This document shows positions 4,205 to 56,956 of a stretch of 64,000 nucleotides of DNA, one piece after another (position 1 is the stretch's first letter; each line of letters opens with the position of its first letter). The notes under the pieces were generated by a model, which saw only the letters and a list, made by a program, of their open reading frames with translations, was not told the DNA's origin and did not search any database. Source of the DNA: Mytilus edulis (lineage: Eukaryota); contig NC_092344.1 in NCBI RefSeq assembly GCF_963676685.1, forward strand, positions 71,734,001 through 71,798,000, in the 5' to 3' direction. The position numbers and the translations under genes are program-made.

Positions 4205-4342
4205 AATAAAATTGAGAATAGAAATGGGGAATGTGTCAAAGAGGCAACAACCCGACCACAGAACAGACAACAGCAGAAGATCACCAATTGGTCTTCAATG
4301 CAGCGAGAAATTCCCTCACCCAGCGGAGTCCTTCAGCTGGCA
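4205..4342 (-). mobile_element. Short 3'-end fragment of the Naiad-type retroelement family
   Basis: Reverse complement matches the last ~140 nt of the element at 8501-11612 (…ttgacacattccccatttc…ttctcaattttatt). Confidence 0.8.
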
Positions 4343-8200: not shown

Positions 8201-11200
8201 TTTCCCACTTAGAACTTGATAAATTCATTATTAGGAATTTGATATTGCCTTATTTAATAAAGCTACATGTACATGTTATATATATTTTATTTTTTAAGAT
8301 AACATTGGTTGTAAATGTTGCGTCTGAATGTGGATATACTGATAACCATTACAAAGCACTATCAAAGATACATAACCATTTAGTTACAACTGGAAGATTT
8401 TCAGTATTAGCCTTCCCATGCAACCAGTTTGGAAAACAAGAGCCAGGAGTAAGTACATAACCTTTCTGTGTAGCATTCATAGTAAGAGCCAGGAGTAAGT
8501 AAAATTACAGACAGTCTACCCTCTCGGTCTTAATGATAATATCATGGGAATTGGCAATATATCAAGAACCGATTCTGTTAACATTTTGGATATAGTTTCT
8601 AAAACTGTTCGTAAAAATCGTTCTCATGGACGCAGAAAAAATCGCAATCAAAGAAAATTTCGGACCAACCATACAAATATTTCGGACCTAATTTCCATTT
8701 CAAAAAACAACGGCAGACATTATCTGTTAACCAAGCTTTGTTCTTTACCTATAAATAAATTAAATAAAATTTTAGAGGATTGCAACACAATTTCATATTA
8801 CAGTCCTAAGTATGAAATTGTCCAAATTATAATGGCATATTGTTATTCTAAACTGTTTCCAAAAATTGATCGCCCTGAAGATCATAAAAAACATTTTATT
8901 AAAATAAAGTATGTCAATAAAGGTTTTGATTTTGTAAATATTGCCGGTATTTTTAACGACCATTCTGTTAAAGACCAAATTCCTGGATATTTTGATAATA
9001 CTGAACTCCCTCTCATTTGTTATATTTACAAGAAATCTACCCGAAAATATGTGTTTAATTATAGCCAATTGTGTAAAGATGTAAATATCACTGAAAATAC
9101 ACCTATGTCGTGTAATTGCAGTAATTCAGAATACACCTATGGACCAATTTCCCATGTTATAACAGGAGACCTTAACATCGTTCGCGACCGAGAGTTAAAA
9201 TCATTCCTCAGTAAAGGACCTAAATATCGTCCCCCGTCAACTATTAACTGGAATGAGTGTCGTAATATCATCAACGACTCACTCCGCGCCTACTGTTTGA
9301 AATGGGTAAAACGGGAAAAAGCTGACAAAAAATCTTTGGACTCTTTTTTTAATTCAGTAATGAAGATAGTTGATATTCGAATACAACATTTTAAAGAACA
9401 TTTTACCCTCAACAAAAACTATAAAAACCCTATTTCGCGTATCAAAAATAAACTAACAGAACTAGCCAAGGAATTTGTTTTTGTCCCGGCTGATAAAGCT
9501 GCTAATAATATCATTATTGTTTGACGTAAATTTTATATAGAGGTTCTGCAAAAGGAAATCACGAATTCACCAACATTCCAACTGACTTCATTTTCAGAAA
9601 ACGACATCTGTAACAAACATAAACTTTTAGCTACTTCTTTACAAGCAGAACCAAACACAATGAAAGTCCCAACTATGTACTGGCTTCCGAAGCTGCACAA
9701 AAAACCTTACAAATATAGATTTATTTCATCTTCCAGCCATTGTTCAACTACTAAATTGTCTGTTTTACTTACTAGTACACTTGGTACAATAAAAAACCTG
9801 ATAATAAATTGTTCAAATAAGGCCTTTGAAAATAGTGGAATTAATTACTTTTGGAGTGTCAAAAACTCGTTGGAAGTACTTGATAAATTGCATGCATATA
9901 TTGGTGATTTTGAATCTGTTCAAAGTTTTGATTTTTCTACCCTATATACCACTTTGCCTCATATTCTTATTAAGAAAAAATTCACATCCCTAATTAACTG
10001 GGCATTTAAAAAGTCGGAATGCGAGTACATATGTTCAAACTCTTTTAGATCATTTTTTAGTAGCAATAAACAAAAGAACTATGTCAATTGGACATGCTTT
10101 GATACTATTTATGCACTTGAATTTTTACTTGATAACATTTTTGTTCGCTTTGGAGATTCCGTATATCGTCAAGTTATTGGAATTCCAATGGGGACTAACT
10201 GTGCACCACTTATTGCGGACCTGTTTTTGTATTGTTATGAGTTACAATTTATGACTAAAATTAGCAAAGACCCATCAAAACAACATTTGATACAAAAATT
10301 TAACAATACTTTTAGATATTTGGATGATATATTGGCTCTAAATAATGACGACTTCAGTATGTATACTAAAGAAATTTATCCTGTAGAACTTACTTTAAAT
10401 AAAGCTAATGATAACAATGACCACTGCCCTTTCCTCGATCTTGATATCTATATCATAAACGGGAAGCTTAATACAAAAATTTATGATAAAAGAGATGATT
10501 TTTCATTTCCTATTGTTAATTATCCATTTTTAGATGGTGACGTTCCCTTGTCACCATCTTATGGTGTTTATATATCTCAACTTGTACGATTCGCTCGTGT
10601 ATGTAACAATGTATTAGATTTTAGCGAGAGAAATTTATGTATTACTGAAAAATTATTACACCAGGGTTTTCGATATCACAAACTGGTCAAAACATTTACT
10701 AAATTTTATCACCGGTATAAGGAAATAATTCGTAAATATAACTCAACATGCAGACATCTTATACGTTCAGGTATTTCACATCCAAAATTTTATGGAAATA
10801 TTCTTTATAAAGCACAAAAATGTCAGTATTCTCCTCAGAAACTAACAAAACCTTTAAATAGACTTATTAAAAGGGGATATAGTTACGATACTGTTGTCAG
10901 GTCATTAAAGATTGCATATTTTGGCTTTAACATTGGTTCACTGATAGGGTCTTTGCATCGGAACTAAACACATTTATTTCTAAAAAAACAGTTGTTGGCA
11001 TGACACGGGTTATGTTCTTCTCATATATTTTATGATAGTATGATACTAAACCCCTAACGGGAGGGATTGTACCTGATATTCATATGATGAAGACATAATC
11101 TTTCAATCAGTTTAATTGAGGTCTGGAGCTGGCATGTCAGTTAACTGCTAGTAGTCTGTTGTTATTTATGTATTATTGTCATTTTATTTATTTTCTTTTG

Positions 11201-14200
11201 TTACATCTTTTGACATCAGACTCGGACTTCTCTTGAACTGAATTTTAATGTGCGTATTGTTATTCTTTTACTTTTCTACATTGGCTAGAGGTATAGGGGG
11301 AGGGTTGAGATCTCATAAACATGTTTAACCCCGCCGCAATTTTGCGCCTGTCCCTAGTCAGGAGCCTCTGGCCTTTGTTAGTCTTGTATGATTTTAATTT
11401 TTAGTTTCTTGTGTATAATTCGGAGTTTAGTATGACGTCCATTATCACTGTACTATTATGCATATTTTAGGGGCCAGCTGAAGGACACCTACGGGTGCGG
11501 GAATTCTCGCTACATTGAAGACCCATTGGTTGCCTTCGGCTGTTGTTTGCTCTATGGTCGGGTGGTTGTCGCTTTGACATACTCACCATTTCCTTTCTCA
11601 ATTTTATTTTTTACATAACCTCTATGTGTAGCATTCATAGTAAGAGCCAGGAGTAAGTACAATAACCTCTCTGTGTAGCATTCATAGTTTTAGATAAGGG
11701 TGTTACTTAAAGTTTTCATGGTTGAATTTCTTGTTGCATTATCTACCATACATGTACATCATAAATTTTAACTATAGTAAGTCTACAACCTTCAATGTTA
11801 GAAATATAAGCAACTTACTATAGTTACAACTACCCGTTTATTCAGTCTTTAATTCTACCATTAAATTTATTAGTACCAGACTTGGTTTCTAGATCTACTT
11901 TATGGTTGTAAAGTTGTTTTTCTTGGACATCATTGTTACAATCTGTAGTATGACAAAATTTATAATGAAAGAATGTTTAGACTTTTTAAGTTAATACATT
12001 GTAACAAAATTCATATCAATTTTGTTAGACAGTCTTTTCAGGAAAAAACTGTGTCATGAAATCAATAGTTTACGTTTTTGGTTTGATGTGGCAAAGATTT
12101 ATTATGATGTGTTGTAGATGTGGACAATCATACCACATCATCAAATATAAAATGTATTTCATAAAGGTGTGCATGAACTATATTGATTCCCATGATTTAT
12201 AGAAATGTATATTGTTAACTTGACTTCTTAGACAAACAAAATTTACACAATCTGGACAAGACACCACCAGATGTTACAGTCAATACGTTCTATAAAAATA
12301 TGTTGTAATATAGTATTAGTTATCAATGATTTTATCATAAAAGGCCATTGATTGATATTGAGTGGCTTAAAATTTTAATTCCCATTTCATAGAATCATTT
12401 AACGTAACACAGACTAGGTTTAACTCTTTTGCTTTCCAAGAACTATTACAAATTGAAATTAGAATTAATCTGTCTCATTAATGGTCATTTAAAAAAACAA
12501 TTGGTATTATAGGTCACATGAAGTAAGCATGGTTAGTTTGGAGAATTTTTTTTTGAAAAGTAAAAAACAATGTTCATTGTCAATTGTCTTTCCAAAACAT
12601 ATGTACTGTTAATCCTATAGTTTTTTAGCTCACCTGGCCCGAAGCTTTTCTCATCACTTCGCGTCCGTCGTCATCCTCGTCCGGCGTCGTCTGTTAACTT
12701 TTACAAAAATCTTCTCCTCTGAAACTACTGGGCCAAATTAAACCAAACTTGATCACAATCATAATAGGGGTATCTTGTTTAAAAAATGTGTCCGGTGACC
12801 CGACCAACCAACCAAGTTGGCCGCTATGGCCAAAAATAGAACATAGGGGTAAAATGTAGTTTTTGGCTTATAACTCAAAAACCAAAGCATTTAGAGCAAA
12901 TCTGATATGGGATAAAATTGTTTATCAGGTCAAGATCTATCTGCCCTGAAATTTTCAGATGAATCAGTCAACCCGTTGTTGGGTTGCTGCCCCTGAATTG
13001 GTAATTTTAAGGAAATTTTGCTGTTTTTGTTATTATCTTGATTATTATTATAGATAGAGATAAACTGTAAACTGCAATAATGTTCAGCAAAGTAAGATTT
13101 ACAAACAAGTCAACATGACCGAAATGGTCAATTCACCCCCTAAGGAGTTATTGTCCTTTATAGTCAATTTTTGACAATTTTCATAAAATTTGTAAATTTT
13201 TACTAACATTTTCCACTGAAACTACCGAGTCAAGTTCCTTATAGATAGAGATAATTGTAAGCAGCAAGAATGTTCAGTAAAGTAAGATGTACAAACACAT
13301 CACCATCATCAAAACACAATTTTGTCATGAATCCATCTGCTTCCTTTGTTTAATATTCACATAGACCAAGGTAAGGGACACCGGCTCTTTAGAGCCTCTA
13401 GTTAAGGGTCATAACAAGAGATTTTTACAGGAATAAATTTCGAAAGTTTTTTGGGGAATTTTTAGTTTTACAAGGTATATAACTAATTATCATTGATTGT
13501 CCAGTGAAATTTTGTTTGGTTGAACAAATCATAATTGCCCACTGGACTGAGAGCTCAAGGTAGTCCAGAACTAACAATATAGAAGGTTGTACAATAAACT
13601 CTAAATACACCTTTTTAGCTCACATGCCCTGATGTGCCAAGAGTTTGTCCAAAATATACATGTACAAGAAACAGTAAAATACTCAATTCAGACGAGTGCT
13701 TGGATATTTTTATATTTTGTATTTTTAACTTGTTCAAATATTGTTAGTCAACCATTTGATCTTTTTTTTTCTTTTAATATTTTATAACTTCCTTTTTTGC
13801 AGACTAATGCAGAAATCCAAAAATTTGCAAAGGATAGATACAGGGCTAAATTTCCTGTATTTGGAAAAGTTAATGTTATTGAAAGTGATGTATCACCAGC
13901 ATGGCAGTATTTAATAGGTAAGTTGATAAAGAAACAGAAATTAAAACCTTTGTATTGATAATGGAAACTAACATGTTCCTGTGCTACTTCATATAATGTT
14001 TATGCTCCAGCTTAAAACACTTGTAATCATACATGTATTTTTATGTACCAGAGAGAAAACCCCTCCAAAAAAAAATAACATCAGTTGGTTTAATCACTTC
14101 AGTATATCTGGTGTAAAATGTTCAACTATTTATGAAAATTGCATTGAATTTCACTGAAGGCGATAATAAGTAGAATTTGTTTTTTTTTATTGATTTGGGT

Positions 14201-35299: not shown

Positions 35300-36748
35300 A
35301 TAAAATTGAGAATGGAAATGGGGAATGTGTCAAAGAGACAACAACCCAACCAAATAAAAAACAACAGCAGAGGGCCACCAACAGGTCTTCAATGTAGCGA
35401 GAAATTCCCGCACCCGGAGGCGTCCTTCAGCTGGCCCCTAAACAAATATATACTAGTCCAGTGATAATGAACGCCATACTAATTTCCAAATTGTACACAA
35501 GAAACTAAAACCAAAATAATACAAGACTAACAAAGGCCAGAGGCTCCTGACTTGGGACAGGCGCAAAAATGCGGCGGGGCCAAACATGTCTATGAGATCT
35601 CAACCCTCCCCCCCATACCTCCAACCAATGTAGAAAAGCAAACGCATAACAATACGCACACCACTCAGCCCAAGAGAAGTCCGAGCCTGATGTCAGAAGA
35701 TGTAACCAAAGAAAATAAACAAAATGACAATAATACACAAATAACAACAGACTACCAGCAGTCAACCGACATGCCAGCCCCAGACCCCAACCAAACCGAC
35801 CGAAAGATTATGATTTCATCATATGAAAATCAGGCACAATCCTTCCCGTTAGGGGTTTAGTATCATACCATCATAACATATATGAGAAGAACATAACCCG
35901 TGTCATGCCAACAACTGTTTTTTAGAATAAATGTGTTTAGTTCCGATGCAAAGACCTTATCAGTGACTCAATATTAACGCCAAAATATGCAATCTTTAAT
36001 GACTTGACAACAGTATCGTAATTATATCCCTTCTTAATAAGTCTATTCAAAGGTTTTGTAAGTTTCTGAGGTGAATACTGACACCTTTGTGCTTTATAAA
36101 GAATATTTCCATAAAAAATTGGATGTGAAATACCTGAACGTATTAGAAGTCTGCATGTTGAGCTATATTTACGAATGATGTCTTTATACCGATGATAAAA
36201 TTTAGTAAATGTTTTGACTAGTTTGTGATATCGAAAACCCTGGTGTAATAATTTTTCAGTAATACATAAATTTCTCTCGTTAAAATCTAAAACATTGTTA
36301 CATACACGAGCGAATCGTACAAGTTGAGAAATATAAACACCGTAAGATGGTGACAAGGGAACGTCACCATCTAAAAAACGGATAATTAACGATAGGAAAT
36401 GAAAAATCATCCCTTTTATCATAAATTTTAGTATTCAGCTTTCCATTAGTGATATAGATATCAAGATCGAGAAAAGGGCAGTGGTCATTGTTAGTATTAG
36501 CTTTATTTAAAGTAAGTTCAACAGGATAAATTTCATTAATATACATACTAAAGTCGTCATTATTGAGAGCCAAAATATCATCCAAATATCTAAAAGTATT
36601 ATTAAATTTGTTTATCAGATGTTGTTTCGATGGGTCTTTGATTATTTTTGTCATAAATTGTAACTCATAACAATACAAAAACAGGTCCGCAATAAGTGGT
36701 GCACAGTTAGTCCCCATTGGAATTCCGATAATCTGACGATATACGGAA
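35300..36748 (-). mobile_element. Second, 5'-truncated and frameshifted copy of the Naiad-type retroelement
   Basis: ORFs 36364-36717 and 35937-36422 match the C-terminal RT of the copy at 8501-11612; +1 T frameshift near 36375; full 3' UTR with the same terminus. Confidence 0.92.
35806..35898 (-). promoter_or_regulatory. SECIS element of the second retroelement copy
   Basis: Minus strand reads ATGAT ggtatgat act AAA ccc ctaac ggg aagg attgtgcc TGAT; core identical to copy 1 and helix II still pairs despite substitutions. Confidence 0.78.
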
Positions 36749-56861: not shown

Positions 56862-56956
56862 ATTGAAGACCTGTTGGTGACCTTCTCCTTTTGTCTGTTC
56901 TATGGTCGGGTTGTTGTCTCTTTGACACATTCCCCATTTCCATTCTCAATTTTATT
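56862..56956 (+). mobile_element. Short 3'-end fragment of the Naiad-type family
   Basis: attgaagacctgttggtgacc...ttgacacattccccatttccattctcaattttatt matches the element terminus. Confidence 0.8.

Follow-up and report, generated by a model that had tools for sequence, protein, structure and literature searches.

Clustered sense-strand A-to-G changes in Naiad insertions of Mytilus edulis: probable traces of RNA editing copied into germline DNA

ADAR-type A-to-G hypermutation has been described in exogenous retroviruses, among them Rous-associated virus, avian leukosis virus, HTLV-2 and STLV-3 (PMC12925331). The tracts reported here resemble those cases in that dense, regional A-to-G change in a reverse-transcribed RNA, reaching up to about half of the A residues, is recorded in DNA. 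They differ in that Naiad is a resident non-viral retroelement and the record, of at least 16 insertions, stands in a germline assembly. Our literature search for ADAR edits fixed in retroelement copies, which took in few subscription journals and no supplements, returned only this exogenous-retrovirus case. The G-to-A fossils left by APOBEC enzymes in LTR retroelements are likewise strand-, cluster- and motif-biased and fixed in the genome, and they call for the same controls (the complementary change and the subfamily majority); unlike the Naiad tracts, they arise by C-to-U change in the cDNA of vertebrate LTR elements (PMC4866542). The same screen came out empty for G-to-A in invertebrates, and ADAR goes unmentioned in its main text (PMC4866542). 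Hyper-edited repeat RNA of animals shares with the present tracts the link to ADAR, the depletion of a 5' G and a Penelope-type target, Penelope being a major target in lizard, but it was observed in RNA reads and not in fixed DNA, and the preference of invertebrates was for a 3' A, compared with the 3' G preferred in the Naiad copies here (PMC5625713). If our reading is true, RNA editing has a route into inherited DNA in an invertebrate, and the tracts are the A-to-I counterpart of the APOBEC fossils of vertebrate LTR elements.

The element belongs to a described group. Selenoprotein Naiads of clams and spiders combine an N-terminal GIY-YIG, a CxC linker and a C-terminal RT with UGA at particular cysteines, a SECIS past the stop codon, pseudo-LTR (pLTR) tandems and frequent 5' truncation (PMC8557442). 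The mussel copies share these features, including UGA at the same cysteines; the distance from stop codon to SECIS is about 50 nt in them, compared with 1-21 nt in the clam and spider elements, and that description contains no mention of ADAR (PMC8557442). The window, by which we mean the whole 64,000-nt stretch of DNA that was analysed, contains two copies in opposite orientation, with the following features:

8501..11609, plus strand: copy 1, a Naiad of the young subfamily A, 5'-truncated, unedited
11022-11086, plus strand: SECIS of copy 1, a full-length match to Rfam SECIS_1 (31-32 bits, E 4e-4, below the gathering score of 35)
35300..36748, minus strand: copy 2, a Naiad Penelope-like element of subfamily B, 5'-truncated, the last 1449 nt of a ~4.0-kb unit
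35937..36748, minus strand: 3' part of the RT ORF of copy 2, to the stop codon; no A-to-G change, a 1-nt insertion relative to copy 1
35820..35884, minus strand: SECIS of copy 2, a full-length match to SECIS_1 (E 3e-4; its 31.9 bits fall short of the gathering score, 35); no A-to-G change
35511..35801, minus strand: A-to-G tract in the 3' UTR of copy 2; 23 of 59 ancestral A changed to G, two other substitutions
35300..35422, minus strand: 3'-terminal ~125 nt of copy 2; one A-to-G change, at 35375, with ten other hyper-edited copies nearly unedited there too

The shared parts of the two copies (10157-11607 and 36748-35300) are 90.6% identical. Copy 1 carries an in-frame TGA at 9522-9524, eight codons past the DKA motif, and is a member of subfamily A, the best 30 copies of which are near-identical to one another. 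Copy 2 has no pLTR and sits inside another repeat, its flanks being deep-coverage repeats; its nearest subfamily B relatives (best 40 of 2,689 candidates) share 95% identity with it in the UTR and 96-97% over the whole length. A 22-nt UTR motif of the family matches the 1.37-Gb genome at 7,587 places. Full-length relatives measure ~4.03 kb, and in L164 and L166 a single frame of 1045-1048 codons results when TGA is read through. Our motif reading of these two places GIQYVGETG, of GIY-YIG type, near the N end, followed by the RT motifs in one ORF; copy 2 is without the N-terminal part, and a Pfam search of the Naiad protein recognised neither GIY-YIG nor RT. The CxC linker motif reads CNC in copy 1 and L166, in L164-L166 UGA stands in frame at two places, the cysteine that precedes GIY-YIG and eight residues past DKA, and partial pLTR tandems are present in L164, L165, L166, L167 and L172. 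These features, with the SECIS_1 matches, bear out the labels Naiad and SECIS that the preliminary description had assigned. An Rfam scan of the UTR found no known ribozyme and no twister match. Two further short 3'-end fragments of the family lie in the window, at 4205-4341 (minus strand) and 56862-56956 (plus strand). Copy 1 stands between direct repeats of ~45 nt (8458-8502 and 11617-11661) and L172 between similar repeats of ~80 nt, either from insertion into tandem repeats or as long target duplications.

When copy 1 was taken as reference, positions 35460-35810 of copy 2 (element sense being the minus strand) showed 25 A-to-G changes among 73 A, one G-to-A change and 14 other substitutions, in agreement with the preliminary description, which had put the numbers at about 25 in some 350 nt with almost no G-to-A. 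Its quoted example of nine differences, all A-to-G, is correct on the same comparison, and the mixed divergence it attributed to the ORF was also seen (8 A-to-G, 11 G-to-A). Because copy 1 belongs to the other subfamily, we re-polarised the changes of copy 2 against the majority of its 29 nearest subfamily B relatives. Over 1449 nt there were 32 differences, of which 24 were A-to-G and none G-to-A. All but one of the A-to-G changes fell at 35801-35511 (23/59), with 0/311 upstream and 1/39 downstream (Fisher p = 1e-20, the tract ends having been set post hoc). Two sites changed their standing: 35800, one of the nine in the quoted example, is a subfamily difference and not an edit, and 35786 is a true A-to-G change that is masked if copy 1 serves as reference. 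Since the subfamily B majority has A at the tract sites, G is not the subfamily state, and the polarity that had been assumed from copy 1 holds against the 29 relatives. A block at 35545-35620 (minus strand) is near-invariant between subfamilies A and B and contains two short palindromes; the copy 2 edits 35590, 35581 and 35580 lie inside it.

Clusters of this kind, which the preliminary description had thought worth seeking in other copies, recurred across the family. A locus was scored as hypermutated when a single kind of change occurred at least 7 times and accounted for half or more of all substitutions relative to its nearest relatives. A single-site search for A-to-G yielded 30 loci, 6 of them hypermutated (5/29 without copy 2), whereas the mirror search for T-to-C in the same palindrome yielded 26 loci and none hypermutated. 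Hypermutation of any kind was absent from 30 unselected loci and from 59 nearest relatives. The first multi-site search gave 5 A-to-G matches compared with 0 for T-to-C, all five passing the cut-off; the second gave 14 and 2 matches, with 7/14 and 0/2 passing. The union of these matched searches held 12 hypermutated A-to-G loci against 0 for T-to-C, and unmatched searches supplied four more (L190, L192, L204 and L243), for a total of 16 hyper-edited insertions including copy 2, all with A-to-G on the sense strand and drawn from subfamilies A and B. Each carries between 7 and 65 edits, and the tracts in some extend into the ORF. L149, L152, L153, L156 and L159-L161 from the A-to-G search, and L162 and L163 from the T-to-C search, fell below the cut-off and were not counted; L063, L148 and L151 are duplicates of L031, L065 and L076. 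With 12 edited loci covering the 22-nt motif among its 7,587 matches, the frequency is at least about 2 per 1,000 copies. Edit patterns varied from copy to copy (median overlap 0.47); this overlap is as expected from shared hot sites, and some copies may descend from a partly edited parent. The sense-strand G-to-A clusters of an APOBEC-type DNA-editing fossil were absent: copy 2 has no G-to-A change, and no G-to-A or C-to-T hypermutated copy occurred among 145 loci, none of which had been chosen for G-to-A.

The neighbours of the edited A residues were examined in a pool of 11 copies from which 8 selection sites were excluded. Edited fractions by 5' neighbour were 65/159 for A, 138/337 for U, 45/164 for C and 31/175 for G (p = 4e-7), and A followed by a 3' G was edited at 83/198 (p = 0.004); the top triplet was UAG (41/78). 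With sites taken as units (n = 113), the 5' bias gave p = 6e-6 and the 3' bias p = 0.02. The pooled depletion of 5' G together with the UAG preference matches the ADAR pattern. Depletion of 5' G is a preference common to metazoan ADARs (PMC5625713), and it has been seen for the molluscan ADAR1 of oyster and abalone, in which the downstream preference was not strong (PMC6651903). The ADAR neighbour bias anticipated in the preliminary description is thus present in the pooled copies and not significant in copy 2 alone (5' G 4/12, p = 0.75). As to RNA-seq, which it had suggested scanning for editing, three raw runs of bulk RNA under a related species label had, among the places listed, 63/65, 54/42 and 61/45 A-to-G versus T-to-C places, compared with 26/23 in DNA, so that no clear excess appeared at the 2% level. 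RNA coverage was about a hundred times deeper at the 3' end than at the 5' end, likewise in DNA, and reads, from libraries of unspecified strand type, ran in both orientations. RNA depth tracks DNA copy number and displayed no separate edge of the kind that a fixed antisense start, a conceivable reason for the 3' boundary of the tracts, might leave.

The tract of copy 2 begins 19 nt past a SECIS without A-to-G change, as the preliminary description had noted in calling the SECIS intact and the tract close behind it. The shielding of the SECIS by bound protein that it offered as a reason is rejected. In four other copies with a tract start upstream of the SECIS, 21 of 80 SECIS A residues were edited, compared with 27.1 expected, and the apical A run was edited in three of the four. 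In copy 2 the 800-nt ORF part is equally unedited; the tract simply does not extend to its SECIS or its ORF. Edits in a SECIS or ORF would probably disable new copies. While the 5' ends of the tracts varied widely between copies, their 3' ends gather near a point some 125 nt short of the element end, beyond which 11 copies together had 3 edits in 185 A, compared with 55.6 expected. Absolute protection of the 3' end was rejected, since in the short copy L243 editing runs to within about 90 nt of the end. A direct search for edited 3' ends gave 20 matches, of which L243 alone passed the cut-off; most of the others are older diverged copies in which G is the normal state. Small A-to-G clusters limited to the 30-90 nt before the spared 3' end were also noted in L182, L187, L192, L201 and L204, from a search biased to G there. 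Any one of three causes could account for the spared end: RT binding, a stable fold, or edited ends that fail to prime. A search for a conserved fold in it gave a weak consensus energy of -5.4 and z of -0.7 and 0.0, with no unusual stability. Edit patterns of this sort would show where the RNA is exposed and where it is protected during transposition.

We consider it highly probable that the tract of copy 2 and its recurrence in the family represent ADAR-edited RNA fixed by retrotransposition. In this scheme ADAR would edit a single Naiad RNA molecule while part of that RNA is double-stranded, and the reverse transcriptase of the element would read inosine as G and copy the edited RNA into germline DNA. 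The partner strand would most likely come, as an antisense or inverted stretch, from another copy of the family, of which there are more than 7,500, and varying 5' ends of partner copies would give varying tract starts. The preliminary description had likewise proposed A-to-I hyper-editing as dsRNA followed by germline reverse transcription. The core of that proposal stands on private, clustered sense-strand A-to-G changes, their presence in short-read data, recurrence and ADAR-like context; the double-stranded partner stays a supposition, the neighbourhoods of ten hyper-edited loci (~5 kb on each side) having revealed one inverted piece, of 53 nt at L174, and those of 14 further loci no inverted partner. 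Inverted neighbours do occur in the family, both orientations being present at 9 of 197 short loci. Fold-back within the element was rejected as the substrate: there is no long inverted repeat, and UTR editing per site did not follow predicted pairing (rho 0.10, p = 0.37). L167, a pLTR-body insertion without its 3' end, faces an inverted 3' fragment 580 nt away and is a possible source of fold-back RNA. If the scheme is true, the tracts are genomic evidence for ADAR meeting retroelement RNA in the germline.

One hyper-edited insertion carries the same edits in both of its repeats:

G000:C5, about 2144172-2148665, minus strand: L172, inserted at full length, its pLTR 514 nt long and its junction of the usual form

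The pLTR of L172 has 49 A-to-G changes and the 3' end of its body 50, with 48 common to both. The lone extra edit of the pLTR adjoins an alignment gap, and the two extras of the body lie just upstream of the pLTR start. The 48 common edits place the changes in the template before duplication and argue against change after insertion. This suggests, from a single locus, that the RNA stretch behind the 3' end was copied a second time to give the pLTR; 3'-end re-entry, a circular template and copying of the new cDNA are indistinguishable here as routes. A tandem-transcript model of Penelope-like transposition likewise treats the origin of pLTR tandems and of insertion ends, invoking a multi-copy mRNA and leaving later steps open, but copies lying separately in a single RNA would each acquire edits of their own, unlike the repeats of L172, which share theirs (PMC11167929). 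No second insertion with edits common to pLTR and body was found in 14 extended and 197 short loci. The repeats of L172 could instead be alike through an already-edited DNA parent or through gene conversion, without one RNA having been copied twice. We regard this as unlikely, though as a serious contender: the shared-edit case is a single one, a parent may be lost or missing from the assembly, and the pLTR start lies within 20 nt of the tract start, an unexplained coincidence. Against an edited parent, scoring of the best 40 of 2,715 candidates turned up no further locus with the pattern, the next best reaching 91%, and a parent with matching repeats would need the same explanation one round earlier. 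The two body edits just outside the pLTR mark the pattern as native to the body. As for gene conversion, the repeats differ by 7 substitutions in 521 columns, near the body's own drift from its subfamily, which speaks against recent homogenisation; an early conversion may still have taken place. Where edits made a run of G, the pLTR (L172:4142-4665) has 8 more G than the body, likely from slippage enabled by the editing.

Other explanations of the A-to-G tracts leave out RNA editing altogether. The Naiad RT might insert C opposite A in bursts, through an error-prone phase or an imbalance of nucleotide pools. Such bursts would likewise give sense-only A-to-G change and patterns specific to each molecule, and they sit well with bulk RNA that lacks a clear editing excess. 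Nevertheless, we judge them very unlikely, because the 5' G depletion and UAG preference fit ADAR, and because 18-57% of the A residues per copy were changed with other changes near-absent. RT error rates are far below such fractions. Two independent error-prone passes are excluded by the 48 common changes in L172, unless its pLTR was copied from the first cDNA. Marginally less probable again is that adenines were deaminated or miscopied in DNA after insertion, for instance if ADAR edited the DNA strand within an R-loop. ADARs do edit the DNA of DNA:RNA hybrids in vitro (PMC12925331). However, copies lie in both orientations to host transcription, and T-to-C clusters would then be expected; 0/26 and 0/2 were seen. 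The same 48 changes would also be improbable in two L172 repeats 4 kb apart.

That the G letters are an artefact of assembly, polishing or base calling has, in our estimate, a very small probability. The preliminary description had named base calling and polishing as possible sources of error, and the G letters are found in short-read contigs from two studies. Four contig sets were compared, runs with small shares of the sampled words being left out; we guess that X1 and X2 derive from DNA, X1 perhaps from the very sample that was assembled. An X1 contig of 72 nt at 35726-35797 spans 10 edited sites with 0 differences, at a depth of 105 compared with 67-92 at unique flanks. An X2 contig of 154 nt (35704-35857), from another study under another species label, has 3 differences where an unedited relative would show 12. 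Its depth of 56 compared with about 10, some five times single-copy, could come from an old shared insertion, from a number of descendants left by the edited copy, or from an overstated depth of the contig. In X4 and X8 the edited piece was not found among the 8 pieces listed for each. The empty form of the repeat flanking copy 2 is present in all four runs, which makes presence or absence between individuals unreadable. In favour of an artefact, this evidence consists of contigs, the best run contained 0.61 of the sampled words with 8 pieces listed per run, and clustered sequencing errors exist, although the G-to-A errors reported in Sanger traces (PMC2873906) are of a different pattern from the A-to-G here. 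Against it, an artefact would not track the element sense at loci on both chromosome strands, nor would it reproduce an ADAR context. Least probable of all, to the point of being negligible, is that an unsampled subfamily normally has G at these sites, or that the tract was recombined from such a subfamily. The relatives scored were the best 40 of 2,689 candidates, and a few sites, 35791, 35639 and 35622, are polymorphic in subfamily B. Against this, the best relatives are alike at the level given above and have A, at 14 of the 23 tract sites G was seen in no covering relative or subfamily A copy, and G at both 35767 and 35763, as in copy 2, occurs in just 3 of the 7,587 motif matches, all of which diverge from copy 2 elsewhere.

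We therefore return to RNA editing, and lean guardedly towards a wider joint reading in which ADAR edits regularly enter the germline through Naiad retrotransposition as molecule-specific barcodes, the pLTR of L172 would be an RNA 3' end copied twice (by template re-entry or from a circular template), and the spared 3' end would be the part that the RT holds. RNA-specific edit patterns could then serve as molecular barcodes for how Penelope-like elements build their pseudo-LTRs.

Several loci of the genome scored above the cut-off for the A_deamin domain; this domain also matches ADAD and ADAT proteins, and the loci are candidates for ADAR. The Naiad 3' fragment L211:1-990 (G000:C2, about 61889441-61890430) is flanked by A_deamin-matching exons at C2:61880602 and 61890941, and is probably located within an ADAR-family gene. 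L159-L161 (G000:C14:57.37-58.00 Mb) probably stem from a segmental triplication, all three being near-identical versions of a single old truncated element.
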